The notes: generated from the letters alone by a model not told the origin. Shown: positions 12,553-40,545, numbered from the stretch's first letter. The stretch is DNA of 46,585 nucleotides from Candidatus Hebobacteria bacterium (GCA_029821495.1 JALGTG010000003.1:1-46585), one strand, 5' to 3'. Numbers and translations are program-made.

Positions 12553-12553
12553 T

Positions 12554-16222: not shown

Positions 16223-16232
16223 AGGCCCTCGT

Positions 16233-16442: not shown

Positions 16443-16487
16443 GCTGGTCGGCCCTCCGATGTGTTCGAGGCCTAGCGGCCCATGGGG

Positions 16488-16517
16488 ATTGTAGCCAGGT
16501 CCGGACACCCCCGTCAA
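16488..16517 (-). promoter_or_regulatory. Sigma70-type promoter for ytxH (minus strand)
   Basis: On the minus strand: TTGACG (16517-16512), 18-nt spacer, TACAAT (16493-16488). Confidence 0.5.
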
Positions 16518-16669
16518 GGGATATGGGCAAGGCAGATCCGGATGCTTGCGAGCGCTCTCGGAGGCCCGGGATGCGGCGCTTGCACGTGCGTGGGGCGATT
16601 CCGGCGCCAGGTGGTGGCGCGCCCCGCGACTGGGGGACTGAGGCGTGGGCGCCGCTGGTGGGACGCAGC

Positions 16670-16698
16670 TTGACATGGCCGGGCGCTTGTGATATTTT
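16670..16698 (+). promoter_or_regulatory. Sigma70-type extended -10 promoter facing the hydrogenase operon
   Basis: TTGACA (16670-16675), 17-nt spacer ending in TGa, TATTTT (16693-16698). It lies ~480 nt upstream of the first operon gene. Confidence 0.55.
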
Positions 16699-17181
16699 GA
16701 ACAGAAGGCGGTGCCCGGAACGGAACGTAGGTGCGCCGTCTTTGGACGGCGGCGGCCTCGGGTAGGACGCATGGACCGGCACAAAGTGAGCGCTGGGTCA
16801 GGCGCCCCAGCGCCATCATTCTGTGTTCTCTAAGGCGCCATGCGGTGTCGACGCACGTTCTGTGGCGGATGGGAGGAGGATGGGGGCAGCAAGTTAAGGA
16901 CTTGGCACTCGTGAGAGGGTTGGTCACGAGAGTTTGTGAATACAAGGACAGAGCCCCTGTTGGATGCTCGCGGAGCAACGGGCGGATGCCAGTTGCCTGC
17001 TGGGCGTCGCGTACGTCATTGCTGCTCGGCTGCGCCGACTTCTTTTCCTCCGTGCGCGCACCGCGGAGAGGCCCCTCGTGACGTTCCCGGGTTCGGGGAA
17101 GTACCACCTTGCCGCCTGCACTGGCCTGCCGGCGTGACCCCGGCGCGACGCTCTTGACGGCCGGAGGGAGGATATAGAGCC

Positions 17182-19206
17182 TTGGCTGAACTCGCGACAG
17201 TTTGTCCGTTTTGTGGCTGCGGGTGCGGTCTTTACCTGCACGTTATAGACGACGTAGTGGTCGGCGTCTCGCCGAGCCGGGCGCATCCGATCTCGCAGGG
17301 CCGGTTGTGCGTGAAGGGATGGCATGCACACGAAATGGTGGACAATCCCCAGCGGCTGACCCACCCGCTGGTGCGACGGGGCGATGAACTGGTGGAGGCT
17401 TCTTGGGAGGAGGCCGTTGAGGTCGCGGCCAACGGGCTGAGGAAGGTGGCGGACTCGGCGGGGGCACAGGCCATCGGGGTGTTGGGTTCGGCCCGTTGCA
17501 CCAATGAAGCTAACTACGTCTTGGTGCGTTTCGCGCGCGGAACCTTGGGAACACCGAGCATCGACTGCAGCCAGCGCATACACTCTGTCCCGGAGGTCGC
17601 GCTGAACGCGGGCAATTCCCGCCCGGGTCTGGATACCGGGCAGATTGCGGACCTGGACGAGAGCGATCTCATCCTGCTGGTGGGGAGCGATCCGACGGAG
17701 GAGCATCCGGCGGTCGCGGCGCGGGTCTACCGCGCGCGCCAGCGCGGGGCGCGGGTCATCAGTGTCTCCACGCGGACACACCCGCTGGCAGCGCTGGCTG
17801 ATGTGCATCTCCCGGTGCGCCCGGGTGGGGAGCTGAAGCTGCTGGGGAGCATTCTCCACGTGCTGCTGGTAGAGCAGGGAATGGCGGGGGACGCCGATGT
17901 GTCGGGCCTTCCTGAGCTGCGCGCGAGTGTGGCCGACCTGCCGCCCGAGGAAACACAGGCTGCGACGAGCGTGCCGGCGGAAGCAGTGCGGGAGGCGGCC
18001 CTACTGTATGCCTCCTCGAAGCGTGCGACTGTCGTGTACTCGACGGGGCTGGCGCTCTCGCTCCATGCCAGCGCGGCCGCGCAGAGCCTGGAGAACCTGG
18101 CTGCGCTGGGCGCTTCCGGTGCCGGCCCGAAGGCTACGGTGCTCGGGCTGCTGAGTCGGAACAACCTCCAGGGCTGTCGAGATATGGGAGTGGCGCCCGA
18201 CTTGCTGCCCGGCTACACCGCGCTCGGCGATGATGCAGCCGTTGAGAAACTCGAGCGGGCCTGGCGGTGCGAGCTGAACCGGGAAACCGGCCTCGCGTCC
18301 TGGCAGATGATGGGCAAGGCGCGGGCGATGTACATCATGGGCGATGACATCACGCGTACGATGCCTGGCGCAGGTGTCGCGCGTGAGGCCCTGGCGTCGC
18401 TGGACTTCCTCGTGGTCCAGGATATCTTCATGAGCCCGGCCGCGGCGATGGCGGATGTTGTGCTGCCGGCCGCAGCCTTTGCGGAGCAGGATGGGACCTG
18501 GACCAATCTGGAGCGTCGGGTGCAGAGGATTCATCGTGCGGTGTCGCCGCCCGGGGAGGCGCGGGAGGATTGGCGCATCGTCGCCGGTGTGAGCGGGGCG
18601 ATGGGCAAGCCCATATCATATGAGGACGCGCAGCAGATATTCGAGGAGATCAAGGATCTGCTGCCGGTCTATGCCGGAGTCTTCTACCCGCCGCTGGCGG
18701 TGAACGGCGGCATCCGCTGGCCCACGGCGCAGCCACGTGATGCCGGCGGCGCGCCCGCGGCACGGGAGAAGATCGGAGTGGCAGCGCCTCCTGAGGACGC
18801 CCTGAAGGAATCGGCGGCGGGCGCGGAAACGAGCGACGAGTATCCGCTGTTGATGGCGGCAGATCCCACGCTGCGACCGTGGGATGGCGAGGTCACGGTC
18901 TGTCACACGCTCACGGCGGCGGGCGAGTTCACGGTCATGGATCAGGACTATCCGGACGGAATGCTCTGTCTGAACCCGGAGGACGCGAAGCGCTTCGAGG
19001 TGCGAGGAGGGCGCCCGGCGCGGGTCGTATCGGCGACGGGCGAGGGTCAGATGCAGGTGCGAGTGACAGACGAAGTGCCTCGCGGGATCGCGCTCGTGCC
19101 GTACAATCAGGCCGCTCGGAGCGGGCCGATGGAGGTCTCGAGTCAGCCGGTCAGTGGGCGGCCGGTGCTGGCGCCGACTCCGATCTCGGTCGGTCCGGTG
19201 CAGTGA
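17182..19206 (+). CDS. Molybdopterin oxidoreductase, formate dehydrogenase alpha (FdhF/FdhA)-like, cytoplasmic, without the catalytic Sec/Cys
   Basis: N-terminal 4Fe-4S motif CPFCGCGCGLYL...QGRLCVKGW. MGD-binding regions are present (GSARCTNEANYVLVRFAR, DLILLVGSDPTEEHP, YIMGDD, LDFLVVQDIFMSPAAAMADVVLPAAAFAEQDGTWTN). The C-terminal MopB_CT-like domain is present (LCLNPEDAKRFEVRGGRPARVVSATGEGQMQVRVTD). No Tat signal. TTG start with GGAGGGAGG upstream. Confidence 0.85.
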   Translation: MAELATVCPFCGCGCGLYLHVIDDVVVGVSPSRAHPISQGRLCVKGWHAHEMVDNPQRLTHPLVRRGDELVEASWEEAVEVAANGLRKVADSAGAQAIGVLGSARCTNEANYVLVRFARGTLGTPSIDCSQRIHSVPEVALNAGNSRPGLDTGQIADLDESDLILLVGSDPTEEHPAVAARVYRARQRGARVISVSTRTHPLAALADVHLPVRPGGELKLLGSILHVLLVEQGMAGDADVSGLPELRASVADLPPEETQAATSVPAEAVREAALLYASSKRATVVYSTGLALSLHASAAAQSLENLAALGASGAGPKATVLGLLSRNNLQGCRDMGVAPDLLPGYTALGDDAAVEKLERAWRCELNRETGLASWQMMGKARAMYIMGDDITRTMPGAGVAREALASLDFLVVQDIFMSPAAAMADVVLPAAAFAEQDGTWTNLERRVQRIHRAVSPPGEAREDWRIVAGVSGAMGKPISYEDAQQIFEEIKDLLPVYAGVFYPPLAVNGGIRWPTAQPRDAGGAPAAREKIGVAAPPEDALKESAAGAETSDEYPLLMAADPTLRPWDGEVTVCHTLTAAGEFTVMDQDYPDGMLCLNPEDAKRFEVRGGRPARVVSATGEGQMQVRVTDEVPRGIALVPYNQAARSGPMEVSSQPVSGRPVLAPTPISVGPVQ

Positions 19207-19247
19207 GGGCCGAGGAGAATGGCTTGGGGAGGAACGGAGGAGTGCCG

Positions 19248-20288
19248 ATGACGGCCCGAATGCTGCCAAAGAACCGAATAGAGGAGTTTGTGGGGCGGCT
19301 GCTCGAGCAAGCGGAGGTGGTGGCTCCGCGGCGGGTAGAGGTGGGAGACGTGTTCTACGGCGCAGTTGCCTCTGCGGAGGAGGTGGCATGGGACTACGGA
19401 CATGCGGTGGAGCCGCTCAAGCGGTTCCTGCTGCCGCAGCGGGAGACGATGCTGCGCTATTCGACTGGCGACAAGGTGCGGGTCGAGGCCGAGTTGGATG
19501 AGCAGGAGCGGGTCTTCCTCGGGATACGCTGCTGTGACGTGACGGGGATTGGGGTGCTGGATGCAATGTTCGGCGGCGATACGCCTGATCCGTACTACAT
19601 GAGCCGACGTGAGCGCTCGACTGTCATCGCGCTCACCTGCCTGCAGGCGCCGGATGAGACTTGCTTCTGTGTGTGTTGCGATGCCGGCCCGTTCCTGGCC
19701 AAGGGCTATGACCAGCAGTGGACATCCCTGCCGGAGGGGATGCTGGTGGAGGTCGGTTCCGAACGCGGCGAGGCCCTCGTCCGTTCCAACGACGACCTGT
19801 TCGATGAGGCCTCCGTGGATCAAGTCGCCGCGCGCTACCGCTTGGCGCGAGAGGCGGAGCAGACGTTTGGGGACTTCAAGTCCTACATTGCAGGCGCGAT
19901 GAGCAAGCTCTCCATGAACGAGGTGGATCCAAAGGTGTGGGAGCAAGCCGCGCTGCGGTGTATGGAGTGTGGGGGCTGCACTTATCTATGCCCGACATGC
20001 TCTTGCTTCACGGTGACGGATCGAATGGAGGATTCGAGCGGGGTTCGCGAGCGCCACTGGGACGCCTGTCTATACAGCTGCTACGCCCGCGAGGCCAGTG
20101 GGCACAACCCGCGACCGGAGCGAGAGGATCGGCTGCGGGCCCGGTTCTTCCACAAGATCAGCTATCAGTGGGCCCAGCGCAACGGCCGGCAAGCGTGTGT
20201 GGGCTGCGGCCGCTGCGTGGTGGGCTGCATGGCCTGGGCGCACATGCCGGCGATTACGGAAGGGATTCGGCGAGGTGTGATGACGTGA
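19248..20288 (+). CDS. 4Fe-4S dicluster protein, sulfhydrogenase beta (HydB) / anaerobic sulfite reductase AsrA-like
   Basis: CMECGGCTYLCPTCSCF and CVGCGRCVVGC cluster motifs plus a Cys-rich CFCVCCD segment. Overall layout is as in HydB/AsrA. ATG 19248 with GGAGG 7 nt upstream. The ORF-track N-terminal extension overlaps the previous gene. Confidence 0.7.
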   Translation: MTARMLPKNRIEEFVGRLLEQAEVVAPRRVEVGDVFYGAVASAEEVAWDYGHAVEPLKRFLLPQRETMLRYSTGDKVRVEAELDEQERVFLGIRCCDVTGIGVLDAMFGGDTPDPYYMSRRERSTVIALTCLQAPDETCFCVCCDAGPFLAKGYDQQWTSLPEGMLVEVGSERGEALVRSNDDLFDEASVDQVAARYRLAREAEQTFGDFKSYIAGAMSKLSMNEVDPKVWEQAALRCMECGGCTYLCPTCSCFTVTDRMEDSSGVRERHWDACLYSCYAREASGHNPRPEREDRLRARFFHKISYQWAQRNGRQACVGCGRCVVGCMAWAHMPAITEGIRRGVMT

Positions 20289-21115
20289 ACAACCCGTATC
20301 TGCCGAAACTGGCGACCATCGAGAAGGTGAAGACGGAGACCTACGACACGACCACCTTCACCTTGAGGCTGGACGATCCGGAGGAGCGGAAGGCGTTTCA
20401 GCACCGGCCGGGGCAGTTCGTAGAGCTGTCTGTGTTCGGCGCCGGGGAGGCTCCCTTCTGTATTGCCTCGAGTGGGCATGGGCGAGATACGTTCGACCTC
20501 AGCGTTAGAAAGGTCGGCCACGTTACCGGTGCCCTGCATGAGATGGGCGAAGGCGGCCAGGTGGGGATTCGCGGACCGCTGGGGAACTCGTTCCCCTTCG
20601 AGGAGGTAGCCGGCAAGCACATCCTGTTCGTAGGCGGCGGAATAGGCCTGTTCCCCCTGCGGCCTCAGATACAGGAGGTGTGCCGGGAGGCTGATCGCTT
20701 CGCGGCGATCACGGTTCTCTACGGCGCTCGCACGCCGGAGGATCTCGTCTATCGGGAGGAGCTGGACCGGTGGCAGCAGCAGGAGGGAATGACCTGCCTG
20801 CTGACCGTGGACACTGCGAGCGATGGATGGACCGGGAACGTGGGGGTGGTTGGGACGCTGCTGACCAAGATCGAGATAGACGTCAGCAACGCGGTGGCAT
20901 TCGTCTGCGGGCCGCCAATCATGATTCGGTTCGTGGTGCAGGATCTCTCCAATATGGGATTCGGGGAGAACGCCATAGTAACGACACTTGAGCGCCACAT
21001 GAGGTGTGGCATTGGGAAGTGCAACCACTGCATGATCGGCGACAAGTGGGTGTGCAAGGACGGGCCGGTCTTCACCTACGGGCAAATGAGGGAGATGACG
21101 GAGTTCGAGGAGTGA
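20285..21115 (+). CDS. FAD/NAD(P)-binding 2Fe-2S oxidoreductase, sulfhydrogenase gamma (HydG) / AsrB / PyrK-like
   Basis: Ferredoxin-reductase-type fold: RPGQFVELSV, FCIASS, LFVGGGIGLFPLRP (nucleotide-binding). C-terminal 2Fe-2S motif CGIGKCNHCMIGDKWVCKDGPVF. GTG 20285 overlaps the upstream stop (GTGA). Confidence 0.75.
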   Translation: MNNPYLPKLATIEKVKTETYDTTTFTLRLDDPEERKAFQHRPGQFVELSVFGAGEAPFCIASSGHGRDTFDLSVRKVGHVTGALHEMGEGGQVGIRGPLGNSFPFEEVAGKHILFVGGGIGLFPLRPQIQEVCREADRFAAITVLYGARTPEDLVYREELDRWQQQEGMTCLLTVDTASDGWTGNVGVVGTLLTKIEIDVSNAVAFVCGPPIMIRFVVQDLSNMGFGENAIVTTLERHMRCGIGKCNHCMIGDKWVCKDGPVFTYGQMREMTEFEE

Positions 21116-21621
21116 TTCGCGGGGATTGCGTAGAGAGCGCGCTGGCCGATTGGCTGCAGGGCCCGGCTCTGATTCTGGGCGTCGGTAACCCGCTGCGGGG
21201 CGACGACGCGGTCGGCCCGGAGGTGTGTGCGCGCATGGAATCGCCCAACGCGGTAGACTGCGGCGATGCCCCCGAGCGGTATCTGGGCCTCGCCGCTGAC
21301 GCGGCCGTGGGCAGGGTGCTGATCGTTGACGCCATGGATTTCGGTGGGGAGGCGGGGGAGATCGCGTTCTGCAGAGCTGAGGATCTGGTGGAGAGATTCG
21401 GAACAACTCACGACTCCGGCCTTGCAGTGCTGAGTCGGTATGTCGAAGCTGAGCACGGCAAGCCGGTCGCCGTGCTGGGGATACAGCCCTGTGACACGCG
21501 ATTCGGCGCCGACGTGAGCGCAGCGGCGCTAGCTGCCATCGAGAAGGTCAGCGCCTGGTTACGTAGGATCACTTCGCAGTGGAAGCGGGGGGAAATGGAG
21601 GCAGCATGGAGCCGCTCGTAG
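21112..21621 (+). CDS. hycI: Hydrogenase maturation endopeptidase (HycI type)
   Basis: ILGVGNPLRGDDAVGPEV, RVLIVDAMDFGGEAGEI, TTHDSGL and VLGIQP align along the length of E. coli HycI as I recall it. GTG 21112 overlaps the upstream stop (GTGA). Confidence 0.85.
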   Translation: MIRGDCVESALADWLQGPALILGVGNPLRGDDAVGPEVCARMESPNAVDCGDAPERYLGLAADAAVGRVLIVDAMDFGGEAGEIAFCRAEDLVERFGTTHDSGLAVLSRYVEAEHGKPVAVLGIQPCDTRFGADVSAAALAAIEKVSAWLRRITSQWKRGEMEAAWSRS

Positions 21622-23060
21622 TCACGCTGCTCGTTCTTCCGTTCATTGGTGCTCTGGTATGCGGGGTGCTTCCGCGGGGGGCCAAGCTCGTGGCGGCCTT
21701 GGTGTCCGCGGCGGTCGGCGGGCTGGCCATCGGCGTGGCCTGGGGCGCCTATCCCGGGCACTGGGCGATCCTGTACGGTCGTCTGCCGTGGCTGCCCGGG
21801 AGCCTGGGTGAGACTCCGCTCTTCGGCTTCCTGATCGATCCGCTGAGCAGCTTGATGGTGCTTCTCGTTACAGTGGTCGGCTTCATGGTCGTGCTGTACT
21901 CGGGGGAGTACCTCAGCGCGAAGAACGCCGAACACGCTTACCGGGGCGGGGACAATCGCTACTACTTCTGGCTGCTGTTCTTCCTCGGCTCCATGGTTGG
22001 GCTGGCGTTTTCGCCCAACCTGCTGCAGATGTTCATCTTCTGGGAGATGACCACGCTCTCTTCGTGGGCGCTCATCTCTCACACCCACACCAATGTCGCA
22101 CAGCGGGCCGGCATGAAGGCTCTGGTTCTCACCCATGTTGGGGGGCTGGGCTTTCTGATCGCGCTGTGCCTGCTCTTCGTCTTCGCAGGGGGATTCGGGT
22201 TTGAGTCTCTGGGCCGCTTGGGAGCGGGGATGCGGGGGGCGGCCTTCATCCTCATGCTCGTCGCGGCCTGGGCGAAGTCGGCGCAGGTTCCGTTCCACAC
22301 GTGGCTTCCGGACGCTATGGAGGCGCCGACCCCCATCAGCGCCTATCTGCATGCAGCCGCGATGGTGAAGGCCGGCGTTTATCTGGTGGCTCGCTTGCTG
22401 ACCTCCGCATGGGAGGTGCCGCTATACGCCGCACTTGTGGTGGCGATAATGGCGATCGTGACGATCTTCATGGCCATCGTCAGCTACTTCCGACAGGATG
22501 ACTTGAAGCGATTGCTTGCCTACTCGACAATCGCGCACCTTGGATATGTGCTGGTGGGCTGTGCGCTCGGGGCCTTGGGGTCCCGAGTCGCCACTCAGGG
22601 TGCGATCCTTCACATCCTGTGTCACGGCGTCGCCAAGGGCACGCTCTTCCTCTGCGTCGGGGCGATAGCGTATGGGGCGGGCACTCGCCGGATCAGCCAG
22701 CTCAGTGGCTTGGCGTCGAAGATGCCCCTGGTGGCGACGGCCTTCATCGTGGGCGCGATCGCCGTTACCGGGATGCCGCCCTTCTCTACGTTCTGGAGCA
22801 AGTTCCTGATCTTCAGTGGGGCACTGGAGGTGTCCAACGGCGCTATCGTGCTCGTGTTGCTGGCGGCCGAGAGCGTCATCAGCTTCGCCTGGTTCATGGT
22901 GGTGGCCCAGAAGGTGTTCCTGGGCACCCCGTCGCCAGCCGCCGCCGGCGCGGCGGGGGATCCCCCGCCCGGGATGAGCATGGCGCTGGTGATCGGGGTG
23001 ATTCTGTGCGTTGCGGCCCCGGTTTTCGGCGTGCCGCTAGTGAAGCTAATAACGCCGTGA
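21606..23060 (+). CDS. Antiporter-like (NuoL/M/N family) membrane subunit of group 4 hydrogenase, HyfD/HyfF-like
   Basis: Polytopic. FWEMTTLSSWALI; KSAQVPFHTWLPDAMEAPTPISAYLHAAAMVKAGVYL; RLLAYSTIAHLGYV; LHILCHGVAKGTLFL. ATG 21606 with GGAGG upstream. Confidence 0.85.
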   Translation: MEPLVVTLLVLPFIGALVCGVLPRGAKLVAALVSAAVGGLAIGVAWGAYPGHWAILYGRLPWLPGSLGETPLFGFLIDPLSSLMVLLVTVVGFMVVLYSGEYLSAKNAEHAYRGGDNRYYFWLLFFLGSMVGLAFSPNLLQMFIFWEMTTLSSWALISHTHTNVAQRAGMKALVLTHVGGLGFLIALCLLFVFAGGFGFESLGRLGAGMRGAAFILMLVAAWAKSAQVPFHTWLPDAMEAPTPISAYLHAAAMVKAGVYLVARLLTSAWEVPLYAALVVAIMAIVTIFMAIVSYFRQDDLKRLLAYSTIAHLGYVLVGCALGALGSRVATQGAILHILCHGVAKGTLFLCVGAIAYGAGTRRISQLSGLASKMPLVATAFIVGAIAVTGMPPFSTFWSKFLIFSGALEVSNGAIVLVLLAAESVISFAWFMVVAQKVFLGTPSPAAAGAAGDPPPGMSMALVIGVILCVAAPVFGVPLVKLITP

Positions 23061-23088
23061 GAGGTCGGGGAATGCGAGAGGTGATAGG

Positions 23089-25176
23089 ATGAACCCCGCG
23101 CAGGTAGTCCTCATAGGTTCGGCGATCCTGGTCGTGGGAGCGGCGGCGGCCGCCCTTTCGTCGCGCTGGCGAAGTGCGGTGGGCGCACTGTCGTTCGTGT
23201 TCGCGCTTGCGGCGAGCGTGCTGGTCTTCTCGGCCGGGCTGTCAGTGCTGCTGGCCAACCGGGCGGTGACCACGGGAACGCTGGTTGACCTGCCCATGGT
23301 GGGGGCCTCGCTGACGTTCCGTATCGATCAGCTGAGCGCCCTGTTCCTGCTTGTGATCTCCCTGGTGTTGGCGCTGACCAGCCTCTACTCCATCTCCTAC
23401 ATAACGCGCTACCGCGACCAGCACCTGAGTCGATACTACCCTCTCCTCATGCTCTTCTTCGCCGGCGTCATCGGTGTTGTCTGCATGGCGGACTGGCTGT
23501 TCTTCCTCGTGTTCTGGGAGTTCATGACGATCTGCTCGTACTTCCTGGTCGTCTTCGAGAAGGAGAACCCAGTAAGTCTGCGGGCCGGTCTCAAGTACAT
23601 CATTGTCACCCACGCGGCGACAGCTCTGATGCTGATCGCTATCATTGCCGTGTGGCAGAACGCGCAGCCGCATTCCTTCAGCTTCGCTGCCGCCAAGCAG
23701 GCTGTGGGCGAGCTCGCGGTTGCCAAGCCGGCTCTACTGCATGCGCTGCTCGCGCTCTGGTTTATCGCGTTCAGCACGAAGGCAGGTGTGCTGCCCTTCG
23801 GCGACTGGCTGCCGGACGCCTATCCCGCCGCCCCCAGCTCGGCGGCGGCCGCGTTTGCAGGGACCATGACCAACCTGGGAGTGTACGGCATACTGCGGGT
23901 CTTCCTCGAACTGCTGCCGGTATCCGGGTTCAGCACGGCCTGGGGCATCGTGATCGCCGTCTTCGGCGTGGGCTCCATCTTCGTGGGAACTATCACGGCA
24001 CTCGCCCAGGATGACTCCAAGCGTATCCTGGCTTTCCAGATGATCGGGCAGATGGGCTACGTGCTGCTCGCGATCGGAACCGGGCTCTATCTGTTGCCGG
24101 TGCAGCCCGCGATAGCCATGCTTGCGTTTATGGCGGCGGTCTTCCACGTCATCAACGGTGCGTGCTACAAGCCGCTGCTGTTCTTCAACGCTGGCTCGCT
24201 ACTGCTGCGGACTGGGCAGCGTAACCTGAACCGAATGTCCGGCCTTTGGGCGGTCCTCCCGCTCACCGCGATCACCGCGCTCGTTGCCTCGCTGTCGATT
24301 GCCGGCATGCCCCCGTTCAACGGGTTCGTCAGCAAGTGGTTGATCTACCACGTCACCATTCTCGGCGCGCCTCAGCTCCCGATCTTCGTCCTCTTCGGGA
24401 TCGTGGCGCTCTTCGTCTCGTTGGTGACGCTGGCGGCATTCCTGAAGTTCCTCGGCGCCGCGTTCCTGGGGGAGAACATGCTCCCCGAGGAGCAAGCGAA
24501 GGTAGGCGATGTTCCTCTGGCCATGCAGTTGCCTCAGGTAGTGCTGGCTTGCGTGTGCGTGGGGTTCGGGTTGCTGCCGATGCTTCCATTGACGGGGATT
24601 CACCGCGCGGTGAGCGCGCTGGGGGCGTTGGAGTCGGCGCCGAGTCTGGCCGGCCTAGTGGGCAGCTCTTGGGCCGGGCTGGAGCTCTCGCTGTTCGGGG
24701 AGCAGTCGACGGGTATCTGGCTGCCGGTGGCAGGAATGGTGGCCTTGGTCCTCGCATCGCTGCTTGCCTACGGCTTCTCGCGACTGGGGGCAGCGAAGCG
24801 GCGGAGCGTCGCAGTGTGGCACTGCGGGGCCCTGGTTGATGGCGAGAGGGCGCGCTATCTAGTTGTCGAGCCCAAGACCGAGCCGGCCACCGCTGAGTTC
24901 GAGTCTCGCTATCAGGCGCACGGGCTGTACGGCGCGTTCAAAGAGGCATTCCAGAGCATCTATCCCACCGTGAAGCTGCCGCGCGTGCCCTATCCGCGAA
25001 CGCTGATGAGCGCCTTCGACGCCGACAACTGGCTCTTCCAGCCCATGCTGCGGGCGGGGGATTGGCTGACGCAGCGTTTCAGCCGGACTCACTCGGGCGT
25101 ACCGCAGCAGTATCTGATCTGGCAGCTTGTCGGCCTCGCGGTGGTGTTGGTCGCAATTGCGCTATGGGCGCGCTAG
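23089..25176 (+). CDS. hyfB: Antiporter-like membrane subunit with C-terminal extension, HyfB/HycC-like
   Basis: 695 aa. FWEFMTICSYFLV; KAGVLPFGDWLPDAYPAAPSSAAAAFAGTMTNLGVYG; RILAFQMIGQMGYV. The long C-terminal region is as in HyfB/HycC. Confidence 0.8.
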   Translation: MNPAQVVLIGSAILVVGAAAAALSSRWRSAVGALSFVFALAASVLVFSAGLSVLLANRAVTTGTLVDLPMVGASLTFRIDQLSALFLLVISLVLALTSLYSISYITRYRDQHLSRYYPLLMLFFAGVIGVVCMADWLFFLVFWEFMTICSYFLVVFEKENPVSLRAGLKYIIVTHAATALMLIAIIAVWQNAQPHSFSFAAAKQAVGELAVAKPALLHALLALWFIAFSTKAGVLPFGDWLPDAYPAAPSSAAAAFAGTMTNLGVYGILRVFLELLPVSGFSTAWGIVIAVFGVGSIFVGTITALAQDDSKRILAFQMIGQMGYVLLAIGTGLYLLPVQPAIAMLAFMAAVFHVINGACYKPLLFFNAGSLLLRTGQRNLNRMSGLWAVLPLTAITALVASLSIAGMPPFNGFVSKWLIYHVTILGAPQLPIFVLFGIVALFVSLVTLAAFLKFLGAAFLGENMLPEEQAKVGDVPLAMQLPQVVLACVCVGFGLLPMLPLTGIHRAVSALGALESAPSLAGLVGSSWAGLELSLFGEQSTGIWLPVAGMVALVLASLLAYGFSRLGAAKRRSVAVWHCGALVDGERARYLVVEPKTEPATAEFESRYQAHGLYGAFKEAFQSIYPTVKLPRVPYPRTLMSAFDADNWLFQPMLRAGDWLTQRFSRTHSGVPQQYLIWQLVGLAVVLVAIALWAR

Positions 25177-25201
25177 GGTGAGGGGAAGGGAGACACATGA
25201 T

Positions 25202-26902
25202 ATGACAACAGCAGAGCTGGTCCGAGCACTGCGCCACGATTTCGGGGCGGCCATCCAGAGCGTGGAGGAGCCGGTTTCGGACAAGGTCCGGGTGGCGGTC
25301 ACGCCGGAGTCGGTGGTAGCCGTGGCAAAGTCACTCTACCGCGATTACGGTGCGCGCTTTCTGATCACCGCGGGCATAGACTCCCGGAAAGACCGGGACG
25401 GCTTCGATGTGGACCACATCTTCTCGCTCGACAAAGAGCAGATATTCTTCATCGTGCGGACCACTGTACCCTCCGATGGGCCGCATGTGGCGGCGATCAC
25501 TCCGGAGGTGCCGGCGGCGGCCTGGGCGGAGCGCGAGCTTCAGGACTTGCTGGGCGTGAAGGCCGACGGTCTCCTCGATGGAAGGCGGCTCATCCTTCCC
25601 GACGACTGGCCGGAGGGTGTGCATCCCCTTCGCAAGGACATCAAGTACGGAGACTGGCCGCCGCTGGGGGACGGGACGGGGGAGGCGACCTATCCGTGGA
25701 AGCCCGCGCCTGAGGGGACTTCGACGGTCGTGGTGGGTCCGTTCTTCCCCGTGCTTGAGGAGCCGACGCAGCTTCGGTTGTACGTGGACGGCGAGCGGGT
25801 GATAGACTGCGACTACCGGGGATTCTACAACCACCGCGCGATCGAGAAGATGGGGGACAGCGAGCTAACCTACAACGAGATCCCGTTTGTGGCGGAGAGG
25901 ATCTGTGGAATCTGTGGCTTCATCCACTCGAGCTGCTACTGTGAGGCCGCGGAGGAGGCGCTGGGCATAACCGCGCCGCGCCGCGCCCGGTACATCCGCT
26001 CGCTGATGCTCGAACTGGAGCGCATCCATTCTCACATGCTGTGGACGGGCATCGCGGGCCACATACTTGGCTTCGATACGGTGCTCATGCAGACATGGCG
26101 GATGCGCGAGCCGCTGATGTGGCTGTGCGAGAAGATCTCCGGGAACCGCAAGACCTACGGGATGAACATCATCGGCGGTGTGCGTCGAGACATCTCCAGG
26201 GATCTCTACCCGGAGATACTCTCGGTCGTCGAGAAGATCGAGCAGGAGTGGGCTCAGCTTTACGACGCCGTTCAGGGGGACACGATTCTCAAGGCGCGAC
26301 TGGTGGGAGTCGGGATGCTGCCCGAGGAGACGGCCAAGGCGCTCGCGGCAGTGGGTCCCACCGGCCGCGGCTCCAATCAAGCTATAGACGCGCGCGCAGA
26401 CCATCCGTACGCTGCATACGATGAGGTCCCGGCGAAGGTGATCACTCACCCCGACTGCGACAACTGGGCGCGAGTGGTGGTGCGGCTGGAGGAGACACTG
26501 GAGTCCGTTCGGTGGATCCGGGAGGGGCTGAAGGAGATGCCGGATGGCCCGGTCATGGCGACTGACATCGCGGAGACCGTGCCAGCAGGCCATTGGGGGG
26601 TTTGCACGGTCGAGGCGCCGAGGGGGGAGGCGATCCACTATCTGGTGACGGGGGGCGATAATCGGCCGGATCGCTGGCGGGTGCGAGCTCCGACCTACGC
26701 GAATCTTCAGGCCTTGCCGAGCATGATCAAGGACGAGACTATTGCAGATGTGCCGATTACCCTGGGGAGCATGGACCCCTGCTTTTCCTGCACGGAGCGG
26801 GTGGAGGTTGTGAACATGCGCTCCGGCGAGGCCGAGACACTCACCCATCAGGAGCTGCTGACCCGCTCGCGGGCGGCGACCGAGCGGCTCCGGGGACGCT
26901 GA
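25202..26902 (+). CDS. hycE: [NiFe]-hydrogenase large subunit, group 4 (NuoC-NuoD fusion, HycE/HyfG-like)
   Basis: 566 aa. N-terminal NuoC-like domain. NiFe ligand motif L1 RICGICGFIHS (about 25898-25930). L2 DPCFSCTER (26774-26800), followed by a 33-aa C-terminal extension (VEVVNMRSGEAETLTHQELL...) like the HycI-cleaved tail of HycE. ATG 25202. Confidence 0.92.
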   Translation: MTTAELVRALRHDFGAAIQSVEEPVSDKVRVAVTPESVVAVAKSLYRDYGARFLITAGIDSRKDRDGFDVDHIFSLDKEQIFFIVRTTVPSDGPHVAAITPEVPAAAWAERELQDLLGVKADGLLDGRRLILPDDWPEGVHPLRKDIKYGDWPPLGDGTGEATYPWKPAPEGTSTVVVGPFFPVLEEPTQLRLYVDGERVIDCDYRGFYNHRAIEKMGDSELTYNEIPFVAERICGICGFIHSSCYCEAAEEALGITAPRRARYIRSLMLELERIHSHMLWTGIAGHILGFDTVLMQTWRMREPLMWLCEKISGNRKTYGMNIIGGVRRDISRDLYPEILSVVEKIEQEWAQLYDAVQGDTILKARLVGVGMLPEETAKALAAVGPTGRGSNQAIDARADHPYAAYDEVPAKVITHPDCDNWARVVVRLEETLESVRWIREGLKEMPDGPVMATDIAETVPAGHWGVCTVEAPRGEAIHYLVTGGDNRPDRWRVRAPTYANLQALPSMIKDETIADVPITLGSMDPCFSCTERVEVVNMRSGEAETLTHQELLTRSRAATERLRGR

Positions 26903-26913
26903 GGAGGCAGGCC

Positions 26914-27822
26914 GTGGCGAGAGCGATTCTGGAGATCGTGCTGAGCCTGGTCATACTGATCGGCTTGGCTCCCCTGGCCGAGGGGCTGCTTCGTAAGCTC
27001 AAGGCCATCATCCACTCGCGCCAGGGGCCGCCGATCATCCAGCCCTATCTGGACATTGCCAAGCTGCTGGTGAAGGAGGACCTCGCGCCGACTGAGAGCT
27101 GGATGTGGCGCGTCGCACCGGCGCTGTGCTTGGGGGCGACAATTGTTGTCGCGATGTTGACACCGATCGGCGGGCCGCCGGCCTTCGCCTTTGGGGGGGA
27201 CATCATCGTCTTCATCTACTTCGCCTCCCTGGCCGCGGTGGCGATCATCCTCGGGGCATTCGCCTCCGGGAATCCGTACGCCTATGTCGGCGGGAGCCGC
27301 GAGATGATGATGATGCTCAGCGTAGAGCCCGTGATGACCATTGCTCTCGCGGTGGCAGCCATCAAGGCTCAGACGCTGACCTTCGACGGCCTCATGGCGA
27401 GTCCAGTCACGAGCACTCCCTCCATCTCGATGGTGGTGGCGGGAGTTGCGTTCCTCCTCGCGCTGCAGGCTCAGTTGGGCAAGCTGCCCTTCGACATAGC
27501 GGAGGCGGATCAGGAGATCATGGAGGGCCCGTTCATCGAGCGGAGCGGGCCTGGGTTCGCGCTCTTCCGATGGGCGATGCACGCGCGGTTGATGATCTTC
27601 AGCGCGGTGCTGGTGAGCGTTTTCGTGCCGCTGCCCAACCTAGGCATCCCGGTGCTGAACATGGTGCTGACACTGGCGGTGATGGGGGTCGTGCTGGCGC
27701 TGGTGGGAGTGGTCGATGTAGTCAATCCCAGGCTGCGCATTGACCAATCGATGGCCTACTACGCCCGTGTCGTTGTGTTCGTCTCAGTGCTTGCTCTGGC
27801 GCTGGCGATTGTGGGGCACTGA
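26914..27822 (+). CDS. hycD: NuoH-like membrane subunit (HycD/HyfC-like)
   Basis: 302 aa polytopic. GLLRKLKAIIHSRQGPPIIQPYLDIAKLLVKED; PFDIAEADQEIMEGP (the conserved NuoH/HycD loop). Confidence 0.85.
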   Translation: MARAILEIVLSLVILIGLAPLAEGLLRKLKAIIHSRQGPPIIQPYLDIAKLLVKEDLAPTESWMWRVAPALCLGATIVVAMLTPIGGPPAFAFGGDIIVFIYFASLAAVAIILGAFASGNPYAYVGGSREMMMMLSVEPVMTIALAVAAIKAQTLTFDGLMASPVTSTPSISMVVAGVAFLLALQAQLGKLPFDIAEADQEIMEGPFIERSGPGFALFRWAMHARLMIFSAVLVSVFVPLPNLGIPVLNMVLTLAVMGVVLALVGVVDVVNPRLRIDQSMAYYARVVVFVSVLALALAIVGH

Positions 27823-27837
27823 GAGAGGAAAGAGCCG

Positions 27838-28293
27838 ATGATCATCAGCAAGTTGAAGGAAGCTCTGATCTGCTTCAAGGCGGGCCGAGTAACGCTGCCC
27901 TATCCGTTCGCGCCCCACGATCCCGAGGACGGATTCCACGGGCGGGTCGTCGTGGACGCGGAGAAGTGCGTAGGGTGCGGCGGATGTGCAGAGGTGTGCC
28001 CGCCGCGGTGCATTGAGGTGTCGGATCCAGACCCGGACAGACGCGTGCTGGATTTCCTTCTGGAGCGCTGCACCTACTGCGCGCGCTGCGCGGAGGTGTG
28101 TCCCGAAGAGGCGGTCACGGTGACGAAGGAATACGAGACCGCCACCAATGACCTCAATGACATGCACATGCACATCGAGGTCTTCATGAGCACCTGTCGT
28201 CGGTGCGGACGCTGCTATGAGCCGCCTACGCCGCTCGACCGCTTGATGGTTACGGGATTCCGCCCGCCGACGGGTAAGAGCGAGGAAGCCTGA
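27838..28293 (+). CDS. hycF: 2x[4Fe-4S] ferredoxin-type subunit (NuoI/HycF-like)
   Basis: CVGCGGCAEVCPPRCI and CTYCARCAEVCPEEAV, plus C-terminal CRRCGRC. Confidence 0.85.
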   Translation: MIISKLKEALICFKAGRVTLPYPFAPHDPEDGFHGRVVVDAEKCVGCGGCAEVCPPRCIEVSDPDPDRRVLDFLLERCTYCARCAEVCPEEAVTVTKEYETATNDLNDMHMHIEVFMSTCRRCGRCYEPPTPLDRLMVTGFRPPTGKSEEA

Positions 28294-28955
28294 TGTACAA
28301 CGTGCGGCTGATCGAGACCCTCAGCCTGATAATGATCGTCACCTCCATGGCGGCGGTGGAGAGCCAGAACCTCAAGCGCGCGACCACGGCCTACTGCATC
28401 CAGGCACTGCTGATCTGCGGACTGATCCTCACCTTCGCGGTGGGCAATCCGGCGCTGTACGCGTGGGCGGCCGTCGCCCTTGTGACGAAGGCCGTCATCA
28501 CTCCCTGGCTGCTGCTCCACTACATAGGCAAAACGGGGGAGAAGGAAGTGCGAGCCATCATCGGGTTCGGGCCGTCGGTGCTGCTGGTCTCGGCCGTGTT
28601 GATCGCCTCGTACGGGCTCACTCACCGGTACGTGCACTTCCTGGCGCCGACGGTGCAGGCCACCGAAGGAGCCTTCCGCACAAACCTGGCCGTGAGCATG
28701 ACGGTCTTCGCACTGGGCCTGTATGCCATTCTGTCCAGGCGTGATGCGATCAAGACTGTCATCGGCCTGTGTCTGCTTGAGAACGCGATCCATCTGAGCC
28801 TGGTGAGCCTGGCGCCGGAGCTGCGAGAGACAGCGCTCGTTGGCATTGCCACGGAGGTCGTAATAACGGTGGCGATGCTGCTCTACGTGATCGCGGGGAT
28901 CCGAGAGCAGATCGGCACGACCGACACTTTTGAGATGTCCGAGCTTCACTGGTAG
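28293..28955 (+). CDS. hyfE: HyfE-like (NuoK-related) membrane subunit
   Basis: 220 aa, about seven hydrophobic helices. Size and position match HyfE. The ATG overlaps the upstream TGA (TGATG). Confidence 0.7.
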   Translation: MYNVRLIETLSLIMIVTSMAAVESQNLKRATTAYCIQALLICGLILTFAVGNPALYAWAAVALVTKAVITPWLLLHYIGKTGEKEVRAIIGFGPSVLLVSAVLIASYGLTHRYVHFLAPTVQATEGAFRTNLAVSMTVFALGLYAILSRRDAIKTVIGLCLLENAIHLSLVSLAPELRETALVGIATEVVITVAMLLYVIAGIREQIGTTDTFEMSELHW

Positions 28956-28970
28956 AGGAGGACAAGGGGC

Positions 28971-30527
28971 ATGCCCGAAGTCCCGTCGTTGCTGCCGCTG
29001 GCGATTTGTGTTGTTCCCGCCGTCCTGGCGATACTGGCCTACCCTCTAGCTAGGCTTTCGCGCCCGCTCGGGCCGGTTCTGAATCTGCTGGGCGCTGGCG
29101 CAGCCCTGGTGTTGTCAGTGCTCTTGATGGTCCACGCAGTGCAGGGAAGAGTCCTGGTGAGCCTCTCTCGGGAGCTGCGCGCGGATGCTCTGTCGGCCCT
29201 GCTGGTCCTTGCTATCAGTGGGGTTGCGCTCGCAACGGCGATCTACGCGTTTCCTTACATGCGGCTTCAACCTCTTCTCGACCGTGTCAGCCACGCCGCC
29301 GGGGAGGATGTGACGAGGCGACGGCTGGCGGGCTTCTACGCACTCTCCCTCGCCTTCCTCACCACCATGTTGTGGGCCTGTCTCACCAATAACATCATCA
29401 TGCTATATGTTGCAGTGGAGGCAAGCACCATCGCCTCCGGACTGCTGGTCGCGTTCTACTGGGATCGCCGCTCCCTGGAGGCGGCCTACAAGTACCTCCT
29501 CCTGCTGACGGTGGGTATCGCCTTCGCTCTGTTCGGCTGTGTGCTTCTTTACGCCTCCGCAGCCCCCTACATCTCGGGTGAAGGCGGCGTACGCGGCATG
29601 CTGATCACCGACCTCGCCCAGGTGGCCGTCCATATACGACCTGGGATAGCGCTCCTCATCATCTCCTTCTTCATTGTGGGATTCGGGACGAAGGCCGGCA
29701 TCGCGCCCTTCCATCCGTGGCTGCCGGATGCCCATGCAGAAGCGCCGAGCACGATCAGCGCGCTGCTGTCCGGCGTCATGATAAAGATGGCGATCTACGC
29801 GCTGGCCCGGACACTCTTGATCTTCTTCCCGGTGGCGGCCTATAGCCCGGTCTCGCTCTTCCTGATCGTGCTGGCCGCGTTCACCATGCTGCTGGGTGGC
29901 GTCATGTGCCTGGCCCAGGACGATCTCAAACGAATGCTCGCCTATTCGTCTGTCAGCCAGATTGGGTACATCGTACTGGGCATCGGTTTGGCGGGCGTGG
30001 GCTTTGGGCACTCCGCGGGCTACCTGGGTGGATACGGAGGTCTCTTCCACCTCCTCAACCACGCGCTCTGCAAGGCCACGCTCTTCTTGGCCGTGGGCGC
30101 CATCATCTACTGCATGGCCGGCACTCGGCGCATGAGCGAACTGGGAGGGCTTGCGCGACGCATGCCGGTAACCGCGGTGATGTTCTTCATAGCAGCATTT
30201 GCCATCTCGGGCATGCCGCCGTTCAATGGCTTCTGGAGCAAGCTGACGCTCTACCTGGCCGCGGCAAAGGCGGAACTGTGGTGGGCCCTCGCCATTGCGG
30301 TACTCACCAGTGTGCTTACGCTGATCGCGTTTATCCGAGCCGGATACCTGGTATTCTGGAACGACGGCAACGGGCAAGCGAACGAGATAGAGGTAAGAGA
30401 CGCTCCGCTCGCGATGGCGATTCCGATGGGCATTCTTGCGGCACTGTGTGTGGTGATTGGGCTCTATCCTCAGCTTGTCCATCCCTTGCTGGACCCCGCT
30501 GCTCGCGTGCTAGCGAGTGTGTTCTGA
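28971..30527 (+). CDS. hyfF: Antiporter-like (NuoM/N family) membrane subunit, HyfF-like
   Basis: KAGIAPFHPWLPDAHAEAPSTISALLSGVMIKMAIYAL; RMLAYSSVSQIGYIVLG; FHLLNHALCKATLFL. Confidence 0.85.
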   Translation: MPEVPSLLPLAICVVPAVLAILAYPLARLSRPLGPVLNLLGAGAALVLSVLLMVHAVQGRVLVSLSRELRADALSALLVLAISGVALATAIYAFPYMRLQPLLDRVSHAAGEDVTRRRLAGFYALSLAFLTTMLWACLTNNIIMLYVAVEASTIASGLLVAFYWDRRSLEAAYKYLLLLTVGIAFALFGCVLLYASAAPYISGEGGVRGMLITDLAQVAVHIRPGIALLIISFFIVGFGTKAGIAPFHPWLPDAHAEAPSTISALLSGVMIKMAIYALARTLLIFFPVAAYSPVSLFLIVLAAFTMLLGGVMCLAQDDLKRMLAYSSVSQIGYIVLGIGLAGVGFGHSAGYLGGYGGLFHLLNHALCKATLFLAVGAIIYCMAGTRRMSELGGLARRMPVTAVMFFIAAFAISGMPPFNGFWSKLTLYLAAAKAELWWALAIAVLTSVLTLIAFIRAGYLVFWNDGNGQANEIEVRDAPLAMAIPMGILAALCVVIGLYPQLVHPLLDPAARVLASVF

Positions 30528-30547
30528 TCTAGACTTGGAGGTCGCCG

Positions 30548-31057
30548 ATGGCGATTAAGGACTACCTGACCAAGCTGTTCCCGAAGTCGCTTTGGGTCTA
30601 CCACGTTAATACGGGGGCCTGCAACGGGTGCGACATTGAGGTGATAAACGTGCTGACGCCGTATTACGACGCCGAGCGCTTTGGGATCAAGCTCGTCGGG
30701 TCCCCGCGTCACGCGGATGTGCTTCTCGTTTGCGGCCCGGTGAGCCGTCAGGTCGCGTCTGCAGTTCGGCGCGTGTACGAGGCCACGCCTTCGCCCAAGC
30801 TCGTTTTCGCCATTGGGTCGTGCGCCTGCGGCGGCGGGATATGGCACGATAGCTACAACATCCTGGGCGGCGCGGAATCAGTGCTGCCTGTGGACTACTA
30901 CGTTCCGGGATGCCCGCCCAGGCCCGAGGCCATCCTGTATGGAGTCGCCGTAGCCCTGGGTATTCTCCCGAAGAAGACCGCGCCCGTCGTCGCTCGACAG
31001 AAGTTCCTCGACGTGGTCGAGGCGAACTCCGGCGAGGCAATCTCCCCAGAGGGCTAG
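30548..31057 (+). CDS. hycG: [NiFe]-hydrogenase small subunit, group 4 (NuoB/HycG-like)
   Basis: Proximal-cluster cysteines in GACNGCDIE, GSCACGGGIW and VPGCPPRPEAIL. Confidence 0.9.
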   Translation: MAIKDYLTKLFPKSLWVYHVNTGACNGCDIEVINVLTPYYDAERFGIKLVGSPRHADVLLVCGPVSRQVASAVRRVYEATPSPKLVFAIGSCACGGGIWHDSYNILGGAESVLPVDYYVPGCPPRPEAILYGVAVALGILPKKTAPVVARQKFLDVVEANSGEAISPEG

Positions 31058-33571: not shown

Positions 33572-33779
33572 GACTCCTGGCGGTTCGCGGCCGCCAGCGT
33601 CTCGCGGATAGGTGGGCAGTTGGGCGGCGCTACTCGTCCTCGGCCGTGGTGCGCCCCATTCTCTCCTCTCGCAGCTCTCTGGCGCCACTCCCGCCGCTTG
33701 CTTCCCTGGGGCGAGCCCTCGGGCCAGCCTACCTGTCATCTATGTATGATAACTGAGGAATACCGGGCACTGGGCCGCG

Positions 33780-40519: not shown

Positions 40520-40545
40520 TGCGGAGTTGCGAGGAGGCAGTAGAT

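Follow-up and report, generated by a model that had tools for sequence, protein, structure and literature searches.

A conserved twelve-gene operon joining a Hyf-type [NiFe]-hydrogenase to a putative sulfhydrogenase-like NAD(P)H module and a degenerate formate dehydrogenase-like subunit

We analyzed a 46.6-kb stretch of DNA from Candidatus Hebobacteria bacterium (JALGTG010000003.1:1-46585, hereafter the window), and focused on an operon of twelve genes at 17182-31057 on the + strand. This operon encodes a Hyf-type membrane-bound [NiFe]-hydrogenase, homologues of the beta and gamma subunits of sulfhydrogenase I (SHI) and a relative of formate dehydrogenase (FDH) alpha subunits, called FdhA-like here, whose active site has decayed. 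The sequence evidence suggests, with a probability that we put at roughly one in two, that the products form one ion-translocating, reversible NAD(P)H:H+ oxidoreductase complex in which the FdhA-like subunit serves as a relic scaffold. A more specific and more tentative proposal is that this enzyme would be an H2-evolving counterpart of complex I, whose input module arose separately from NuoEFG by combining a sulfhydrogenase-type diaphorase with the alpha subunit of a soluble NAD(P)-dependent FDH, this alpha subunit being now a scaffold devoid of cofactor.

Organization of the operon

The twelve genes are tightly packed and lie on the same strand, and protein families were assigned to their products with Pfam and NCBIfam. 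The first three encode the FdhA-like subunit (17182..19206, 674 aa; PF04879 (Molybdop_Fe4S4), PF00384 (Molybdopterin) and PF01568 (Molydop_binding)), an SHI-beta/HydB-like iron-sulfur subunit (19248..20288, 346 aa; PF17179 Fer4_22) and an SHI-gamma/HydG-like FAD, NAD(P)H and [2Fe-2S] subunit (20285..21115, 276 aa; PF00970 (FAD_binding_6), PF00175 (NAD_binding_1) and PF10418 (DHODB_Fe-S_bind)). These are followed by genes for a HycI-type maturation endopeptidase (21112..21621, 169 aa; PF01750; TIGR00072 at 92 bits, above the cut-off; 36% identity to E. coli HycI), a HyfD-like antiporter-like subunit (21606..23060, 484 aa; NF005097 'hydrogenase 4 subunit D' at 510 bits against a cut-off of 430; 43% to E. 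coli HyfD) and a long HyfB/NuoL-like antiporter-like subunit (23089..25176, 695 aa; 29% to HyfB), which matches the full length of NF005086 'hydrogenase 4 subunit B' with a score (389 bits) below the cut-off. The [NiFe] large subunit, in which NuoC- and NuoD-type parts are fused, is encoded at 25202..26902 (566 aa; PF00329 (Complex1_30kDa), PF00374 (NiFeSe_Hases) and PF00346 (Complex1_49kDa)). Downstream of it lie the genes for a HycD/HyfC (NuoH-like) membrane subunit (26914..27822, 302 aa; PF00146 (NADHdh); 38% to HyfC), a HycF/HyfH (NuoI-like) subunit with two [4Fe-4S] clusters (27838..28293, 151 aa; Fer4 families, NF009053 and NF006076; 34% to HyfH), a HyfE-like membrane subunit with a NuoK-like C-terminus (28293..28955, 220 aa; PF00420 (Oxidored_q2) and NF008556 'hydrogenase 4 membrane subunit'; 27% to HyfE), a HyfF-like antiporter-like subunit (28971..30527, 518 aa; PF00361; 36% to HyfF) and a HycG/HyfI (NuoB-like) small subunit with one [4Fe-4S] motif (30548..31057, 169 aa; PF01058 (Oxidored_q6); 50% to HycG and 47% to HyfI). 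E. coli HyfB, C, D, E, F, G, H and I have one-to-one homologues in the operon, with identities of 27-50%.

The stop codon of the FdhA-like gene at 19206 is separated by 41 nt from the ATG of the HydB-like gene at 19248. GTGA start/stop overlaps are found at 20285 (HydB-like/HydG-like, with a GTG start) and 21112 (HydG-like/HycI), and the HycI and HyfD-like genes overlap by 16 nt if ATG 21606 is taken as the start, GTG 21579 being an alternative. At 28293, in the sequence TGATG, the ATG of the HyfE-like gene overlaps the TGA of the HycF-like gene, and the remaining intergenic gaps measure 11-28 nt. A first-pass annotation of the window had described twelve co-directional genes with small gaps and the same GTGA and TGATG junctions, and had assigned the products to a full Hyf-like set plus FdhA-, HydB- and HydG-like proteins. 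The coordinates and junction sequences bear out the former, and the profile searches of the products agree with the latter.

The same annotation had pointed to the absence of the HycB/HyfA ferredoxin, which holds within the window. A tblastn search of the whole window with E. coli HycB, HyfA, HycH and HyfJ gave a best E value of 0.04, inside pheS, and matches within the operon fell only on the HycF-like gene. This search revealed no hidden HycB/HyfA, HycH or HyfJ gene, and no HycB/HyfA-type gene was called at the orthologous loci described below.

The hydrogenase core and membrane arm

The large subunit carries both Ni-Fe ligand motifs, RICGICGFIH (with CGICGFIH within it; residue 233) and DPCFSCTER, and a C-terminal tail of 33 residues follows the Arg of the second. 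It fits the N-terminal pattern C[GS][ILV]C[AGNS]xxH and the C-terminal pattern [DE][PL]Cx[AGST]Cx[DE][RL], which we take to be the ligand patterns of HydDB. The closest solved relative is HycE (PDB 7z0s_E; 3.1e-125), followed by MbhL (7.6e-74), and the identity to both HycE and HyfG is 38%. The two motifs (L1 and L2) are identical or nearly so, and the cleavable tail is kept, in all loci checked. Each element that had been listed before for this subunit, namely the ligand motifs, the 33-aa tail, the NuoCD fusion and a HycI gene in the operon, was recovered here. The same operon holds a complex-I-like core of NuoB-, NuoC/D-, NuoH- and NuoI-like subunits and three antiporter-like subunits (PF01058, PF00329 with PF00346, PF00146, Fer4 and PF00361, respectively), and by its ligand motifs and this core the enzyme is a membrane-bound [NiFe]-hydrogenase of group 4. 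With conserved L1 and L2 motifs, a cleavable tail and HycI in the operon, the hydrogenase looks competent.

Three subunits contain a Proton_antipo_M (PF00361) domain, and all of them retain the Glu of transmembrane helix 5 (TM5) and the Lys residues of TM7 and TM12, which in complex I mark working proton-translocating subunits. The Lys of TM8 is likewise retained in the HyfD-like and HyfF-like subunits. Judged by these residues, the pumping machinery looks intact.

Decay of the active site in the FdhA-like subunit

The nearest solved relatives of the FdhA-like subunit are FdhF of the hydrogen-dependent CO2 reductase (HDCR; 7qv7_S, 1.4e-117) and E. coli FdhF (1aa6, 2.7e-97). The protein keeps the N-terminal [4Fe-4S] site and the four-domain sequence of FDHs, and TIGR01591 scores it at 474 bits, under the cut-off of 666 bits. 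We aligned 121 sequences, consisting of database hits and orthologues from the loci, with E. coli FdhF as the reference row. Selenocysteine (Sec) or Cys followed by His at positions 140-141, and Arg333, were present without exception in the 70 true FDHs (E. coli FdhF and 69 database hits). In the window protein, Sec140 is replaced by His, His141 by Ser and Arg333 by Leu, so that the earlier description of an FdhA-like protein without the catalytic Sec/Cys is correct. Read-through at a Sec codon can be dismissed, since the open reading frame (ORF) is uninterrupted and the aligned residue is His, hence there is no hidden UGA.

The clade of the window protein (46 proteins) has no conserved residue at FdhF positions 140, 141 or 333. 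Position 140 is occupied by H, Q, Y, E, D, G or A and position 141 by S, C, A, W, Y, F or L; the Cys seen at 141 in some members is absent from the window protein. The first-pass annotation had also considered a substrate of the degenerate molybdoenzyme that was yet to be found, and this looks less likely because the former active-site positions vary even among orthologues. The true FDHs share 160 columns with a conservation of 95% or more; the window clade has lost 79 of these, and 48 are retained in at least 90% of its members. Among those lost are N176, D202-P203, T579-G580-R581 and K679, which are recognizable as probable guanine-dinucleotide- and pterin-binding motifs of FdhF and the bis-molybdopterin guanine dinucleotide family. 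At several positions (176, 403, 404 and 580) the lost motif residue is replaced by a conserved Asp. The four cysteines of the FS0 [4Fe-4S] cluster, on the other hand, are invariant in the clade. E. coli NuoG, included in the same alignment, presents a like picture, with its N7 cysteines kept and its catalytic and pterin-binding positions gone.

Taken together, the FdhA-like subunit reads as a non-catalytic relic that has very probably lost its molybdopterin cofactor. It is still under purifying selection, as shown by 95 columns in which 93% or more of the window clade share a residue. Compared with the more distant loci L004-L006 it is the least conserved subunit (37-40% identity, against 65% for the large subunit); compared with L002 and L007 it is 50-52% identical, about level with HycI (53-54%), and the large subunit shows 65-77% across pairwise comparisons. 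An FDH-like protein of Dehalococcoides provides a precedent for a non-catalytic relative beside a hydrogenase, as it has no FDH activity and was hypothesized to connect a hydrogenase to a reductive dehalogenase (PMC5736913).

These data bear directly on whether the operon encodes a true formate hydrogenlyase (FHL), in which formate would be oxidized at a non-canonical site of the FdhA-like subunit, the electrons going to the hydrogenase and, as a side reaction, to NAD(P)+. We regard this as very improbable. It is true that the nearest sequence families are FDH alpha subunits, and that HydDB labels group 4b as formate-respiring (PMC5037454). However, the Sec/Cys140, His141 and Arg333 that are invariant in the true FDHs are all gone here, the TIGR01591 score falls below its cut-off, and no formate channel gene was found among the scanned window ORFs of at least 140 aa. 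Genes for hyp functions or for biosynthesis of the molybdenum cofactor (Moco) were also absent among the window ORFs scanned.

The probable NAD(P)H-side module

The closest solved structure for the HydB-like protein is the beta subunit of P. furiosus SHI (9nez_B; 3.4e-56), and the two proteins align at the Cys motifs of three [4Fe-4S] clusters. For the HydG-like protein it is SHI-gamma (9nez_C; 1.6e-51), with which the FAD/NAD(P) domains and the C-terminal [2Fe-2S] motif align. These best matches make NAD(P)(H), already put forward in the first-pass annotation, the likely redox partner. NCBIfam models scored the HydB-like protein at 203 bits (ShyB), 200 bits (HydB) and 140 bits (AsrA), all below the cut-offs.

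The second and third genes might also be taken for parts of an anaerobic sulfite reductase (Asr). We rejected this assignment: no gene resembling AsrC, the siroheme catalytic subunit, is present in the operon, the Asr models score below their cut-offs (TIGR02910, 140 against 323 bits; TIGR02911, 209 against 289 bits), and the sulfhydrogenase models and structures fit better.

The P. furiosus enzyme (group 3b, 9NEZ), though alike in its beta/gamma cluster cysteines, flavin and nucleotide domains and [2Fe-2S] motif, differs in what this module serves. Its SHI counterpart passes electrons to a soluble alpha-delta hydrogenase. The window operon contains no delta-type small subunit, and the module would therefore have to feed the membrane-bound HycF/HycG/HycE core.

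Conservation of the operon and probable origin of its input module

The first-pass annotation had proposed looking for the same gene order in other genomes. Seven loci came from a large-subunit scan of species-representative genomes and five further contigs from a protein search (57-66% identity). All 12 genes were found, in an unchanged order, in 9 distinct complete loci (L002, L004, L005, L006, L007, L012/L013, L019, L020 and L021), across which large-subunit identity is 57-77%. L012 and L013 carry one identical protein and are counted as one locus. L006 has fragmented matches in several genes, probably assembly frameshifts, and its residue-level use was limited to FdhA. Two more loci (L001 and L003) are collinear with the window as far as their contig ends allow. 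The named hosts are Armatimonadota, including the class 'Candidatus Hebobacteria', one metagenome-assembled genome (MAG) labelled Bacillota, and Acidobacteria. Because an identical 12-gene order recurs, the operon is a conserved unit and not a chance assembly.

The nearest catalytic relatives of the FdhA-like subunit are found not among FHL subunits but in soluble FdhA-HydB-HydG clusters. In L016 (10001-13828), a catalytic FdhA is followed by HydB-like and HydG-like proteins in the order seen in the window. L014 (9175-13032) has the order HydG-FdhA-HydB, followed by MobA, molybdate transport and MoeA/MoaA/MoaC genes, and its FdhA is 38% identical to the window protein. In L017 (8120-16895), FdhA with HydB- and HydG-like proteins lies among HdrA/MvhD-like and Wood-Ljungdahl genes. 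None of these three clusters has an adjacent hydrogenase, and in all of them FdhA keeps Cys140, His141, Arg333 and the pterin motifs. They probably represent an uncharacterized type of NAD(P)-dependent FDH.

A different arrangement was seen in L015 (10001-19635), where a degenerate FdhA-like protein, HydB and HydG precede a Hyc-type hydrogenase composed of HycF, a large subunit 53% identical to that of the window, HycG, HycD and just one HycC-like antiporter subunit; the cluster has no HycI gene. The L015 FdhA-like protein (clade B) has DPR, TG and His motifs of pterin type, and the catalytic Cys, His and Arg are gone; it looks like an intermediate stage of decay. Since L015 joins the same module to a hydrogenase with one antiporter subunit, the soluble module is portable. 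Within this sample, FdhA is catalytic in all stand-alone modules and degenerate in all those linked to a hydrogenase. This pattern suggests that a soluble, presumably NAD(P)-dependent FdhA-HydB-HydG FDH became attached to group 4 hydrogenases and that its formate site then decayed, to a degree that depended on the lineage.

The presence of stand-alone modules raises the question of whether the operon encodes two co-transcribed enzymes. One would be a ferredoxin-dependent Hyf-type hydrogenase resembling Ech or Mbh, with ferredoxin docking on HycF, and the other a soluble enzyme made up of the FdhA-like, HydB and HydG proteins, such as an NAD(P)H:ferredoxin or NAD(P)H:polysulfide oxidoreductase. 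Ech and Mbh require no added input module, HycB/HyfA is missing from the window, and FdhA-HydB-HydG modules do exist without a hydrogenase (L014 and L016). We nevertheless consider two separate enzymes unlikely. The stand-alone modules are catalytic and the hydrogenase-linked ones degenerate, which points to functional dependence on the hydrogenase. In addition, translational coupling spans HydB, HydG, HycI and HyfD, gene order and adjacency are invariant across phyla and persist on a different membrane arm in L015, and published AlphaFold3 models place the proteins in one complex (PMC13582414).

A proposed NAD(P)H:H+ oxidoreductase

In the mechanism that we favor, the operon would give rise to one membrane complex consisting of a Hyf-type group 4 [NiFe] core and a sulfhydrogenase-type NAD(P)H diaphorase. 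Electrons would enter from NADPH or NADH through FAD to the [2Fe-2S] cluster of the HydG-like subunit. They would then pass through the three [4Fe-4S] clusters of the HydB-like subunit, which presumably docks on HycF, the two of HycF and the one of HycG to reach the Ni-Fe site. There, protons would be reduced to H2 in a reaction that is expected to be reversible. By analogy with Mbh, Ech and complex I, H+ or Na+ would be exported through HycD/HyfE and the three antiporter-like subunits. The FdhA-like subunit would act as a scaffold keeping one [4Fe-4S] cluster off the pathway or on a side branch, as NuoG does with N7. Its ancestor would be the alpha subunit of an NAD(P)-dependent FDH of the soluble FdhA-HydB-HydG type. 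Anaerobic fermenters or acetogens could use the complex to get rid of NAD(P)H as H2 and, at low H2 pressure, to conserve a little energy.

Functionally, the arrangement is analogous to complex I, in which a nucleotide-oxidizing module sits on a core of NuoB/C/D/H/I/K/L/M/N type. The diaphorases are, however, non-homologous (a PyrK/FNR-type HydG with HydB here, NuoE/F in complex I), and complex I ends in the reduction of quinone, not of protons to H2 at a Ni-Fe site. NuoG is likewise a subunit derived from a molybdoenzyme that has lost the catalytic and pterin positions and kept four [4Fe-4S] cysteines. Unlike NuoG, the window protein lacks the N-terminal ferredoxin and hydrogenase-like domains.

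E0' values of -320 mV for NAD(P)H and -414 mV for H+/H2 mean that H2 evolution costs about 18 kJ/mol under standard conditions. When H2 falls to about 10 Pa, the potential of the H+/H2 couple climbs to about -296 mV, enough for a slightly exergonic reaction, and the enzyme could plausibly serve to remove NAD(P)H where H2 is scarce. To our knowledge, the characterized group 4 hydrogenases all take electrons from ferredoxin, formate or CO, and we know of no group 4 hydrogenase for which NAD(P)H:H+ activity has yet been demonstrated.

Several points weigh against an NAD(P)H:H+ oxidoreductase with a relic scaffold. So small a driving force sits oddly with three antiporter-like subunits, and the molybdopterin-contact residues are presumed from the known FdhF structure. 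At the locus L011, in the complete Armatimonadota genome CP070816.1 (1861-12642), the operon ends after HycD and lacks HycF, HyfE, HyfF and HycG at this site, the upstream pheT-DnaJ synteny being common to the window; the missing genes may sit at a second location in this genome, or the operon may be undergoing decay. Further, the FdhA-like subunit keeps Lys44 beside the FS0 cluster in most orthologues and has 11 clade-specific residues (at least 93% conserved), including the Asp residues at FdhF 403, 404 and 580, all of which could mark a new site instead of a dead one. Finally, the published model is three-branched, and its authors favor bifurcation with a third substrate (PMC13582414).

That proposal, by Takano et al. 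(Front Microbiol, September 2026; PMC13582414), is that the enzyme bifurcates or confurcates electrons between H2, NADP(H) and a third, as yet unnamed substrate. The iron-sulfur network would have one branch to the Ni-Fe site, one to an NAD(P)H site, and one to the Fdh-like subunit, where the third substrate would react. It is here that their interpretation departs from the NAD(P)H:H+ reaction favored by us. The AlphaFold3 models, in which the proteins assemble in one complex with a three-branched Fe-S network, are in keeping with a third substrate, as are the retained [4Fe-4S] cysteines and Lys44, the purifying selection with its clade-specific residues, and the DPR, TG and His motifs retained in clade B (L015). 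On the other hand, FdhF positions 140, 141 and 333 are unconserved even among close orthologues, and most molybdopterin-binding motifs are replaced, several of them by a conserved Asp that is expected to repel the pyrophosphate of the cofactor. No subunit resembles a bifurcating flavoprotein of the NfnB, HdrA, Etf or HydB/NuoF kind in the Pfam and NCBIfam searches of the 12 products, and the window contains no Moco genes among the ORFs scanned and no Moco riboswitch. A three-way reaction of this kind appears improbable to us for the window operon.

If the complex is an NAD(P)H:H+ oxidoreductase as proposed, it would link NAD(P)H directly to H2 at the membrane with translocation of ions, a reaction new to bioenergetics. 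Fermenters or syntrophs could thereby shed NAD(P)H as H2 and gain a little energy when H2 is low. The complex would also be an extant counterpart of the step presumed to have led to NuoG. The graded decay of FdhA, from the soluble catalytic form through L015 with its motifs kept to the window with its motifs lost, would offer a natural series for the acquisition of NuoG by complex I. The reading of hydrogenase genes in Armatimonadota, Acidobacteriota and related MAGs would change as well, given that the current labels 'formate hydrogenlyase', 'formate dehydrogenase' and 'anaerobic sulfite reductase' feed wrong inferences on formate and sulfur cycling.

Classification and earlier descriptions

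The large subunit probably belongs to HydDB group 4b and not to group 4f, an assignment that rests on literature about orthologues and this architecture. Placement in group 4f, suggested by the first-pass annotation, is probably wrong and we rejected it on the same literature (PMC10290634, PMC13582414). Three of the loci with 65-75% large-subunit identity (L004, L005 and L007) come from MAGs of the Hebobacteria study, in which HydDB gave only 4b for such group 4 enzymes in that class (PMC10290634). Reported 4f (Ehf) clusters are small, that of D. hafniense encoding six proteins (ACL22288-93) and that of Methylocystis comprising seven 4f-related genes (ehfA-F), unlike the window operon with its 12 genes and three antiporter-like subunits. 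The Hebobacteria study also reported Asr in 65/77 Armatimonadota MAGs (PMC10290634), and HydB-/HydG-like genes of operons such as this one may explain part of that count.

Typical bacterial 4b clusters encode large and small subunits, HyfE-like and HyfC-like proteins, several antiporter subunits, ferredoxins and an Fdh (PMC13582414). About half of the bacterial 4b Fdh proteins lack the Cys/Sec ligand, and their clusters co-occur with SHI-gamma/SHI-beta homologues; such clusters are placed in a bacterial 4b subclade that includes Armatimonadota (PMC13582414). The window operon conforms to this subtype, as it encodes an Fdh-like protein without the Mo-ligand Cys/Sec together with SHI-beta and SHI-gamma homologues. 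An 'enigmatic' group 4 hydrogenase region had been described earlier in Saganbacteria RX5A by Matheus Carnevali et al. (2019), who left its function open, and it comprises an unclassifiable molybdopterin oxidoreductase, cooF, asrA and asrB (PMC6349859). These published clusters resemble the window operon in their large, small, HyfE-like, HyfC-like and several antiporter-like subunits, in the ligand-less Fdh-like protein with SHI-beta/gamma, and in their Armatimonadota hosts. CooF, present in the RX5A cluster, is absent from that of the window, and both reports are computational only.

The statement in the first-pass annotation that this combination is not a characterized complex stands in so far as no complex of such composition has been characterized, but the architecture is no longer unreported, since it was called 'enigmatic' in 2019 and a 2026 study described it in silico. 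The window is thus a further member of an architecture already published in silico. What we add is residue-level evidence that points to a dead-end third branch in this clade, the parallel with NuoG, and the link to soluble clusters and to a Hyc-type variant.

Group 4b itself has been reported to be paraphyletic. Its characterized formate-respiring member, Fdh2-Mfh2-Mnh2 of T. onnurineus, probably shares the HydDB subgroup of the window enzyme, and in both cases an FDH-family subunit is encoded with the hydrogenase (PMC5037454; 10.64898/2026.02.25.708027). Unlike the window operon, with its degenerate Fdh and a Hyf-type arm mapping to HyfB, C, D, E and F, the T. onnurineus complex combines a catalytic Fdh with a distinct Mrp-type Na+/H+ antiporter module; no match to the Mrp E, F or G families was found in the 12 operon products with Pfam and NCBIfam. 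E. coli FHL-1 (Hyc, 7Z0S) and Hyf, of group 4a, share with the window a NuoCD-fused large subunit, a tail cleaved by HycI and homologues of HyfB-I. They differ in that the window lacks HycB/HyfA and HycH/HyfJ, has another gene order, a large subunit that is just 38% identical, a non-catalytic FdhF relative within the operon and an added NAD(P)H diaphorase. Neither the catalytic FdhF-type residues nor the HycB/HyfA link that characterize group 4a were found in the window operon.

Flanking regions and other features of the window

Immediately 5' of the operon lies a stretch of about 960 nt (16223-17181) without a convincing gene. A sigma-70-like consensus scan gave 2 sites against 0.1 expected, one being a candidate promoter (TTGACA-17 nt-TATTTT with TG) at 16670..16698 on the + strand, about 480 nt 5' of the first gene, for which the evidence is weak. 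This site lies within a 35-nt patch that is 83% identical to L011, and most of the 960-nt stretch is unconserved. Transcription from 16670-16698, if it is the promoter, would give a leader of about 480 nt. With gathering thresholds, Rfam had a tRNA-Ala at 1325-1399 as its sole match in the window, so that a Moco riboswitch or other known RNA upstream of the operon was discarded as a candidate.

Some orthologous loci have a second, group-3-like [NiFe] hydrogenase with its own protease 5' of the operon, and some a response regulator and a PilS-type histidine kinase with six transmembrane helices 3' of it, L021 having HypA in addition. These extra genes occur at L012/L013 1-2157, L012 15771-17696, L019 14867-16258 and L021 15949-18212, and none of the three kinds (second hydrogenase, response regulator/PilS-type kinase, HypA) is present in the window.

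Further upstream in the window are genes unrelated to the operon, namely pheS, a methyltransferase gene, pheT and a gene for a DnaJ-domain protein; the methyltransferase, which is of the S-adenosylmethionine-dependent type, is encoded between pheS and pheT (12443-13357, + strand). Since the pheT-DnaJ order is shared with L011, the window most likely derives from an organism related to that Armatimonadota genome. The tRNA-Ala(GGC) gene (1325-1399, + strand), the sole tRNA of the window, overlaps an ORF of 283 aa without a family match that is probably spurious. Four consecutive genes at 2241-6792 (+ strand) encode secretion ATPases of the T2SSE family (PilB/PilT-like), of 354-390 aa each.

Directly 3' of the operon, at 31118-35703 (+ strand), are genes, likewise unrelated to it, for two cell-envelope proteins, an S8 subtilase with three SLH repeats and a protein with Big_7, Big_13, LysM and Cu_amine_oxidN1 domains, and no terminator-like site was found between hycG and the S8 protease gene. 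The following region, 35864-41664 (+ strand), encodes a bacterial alpha-2-macroglobulin of 1551 aa with a full set of domains (MG2, MG3, bait region, A2M, TED and receptor-binding), and then, with overlapping stop and start, an ARPP-1 domain protein. The last genes, at 41987-45454 (+ strand), encode FeoB, with genes for DtxR-type repressor-FeoA fusions on both sides.

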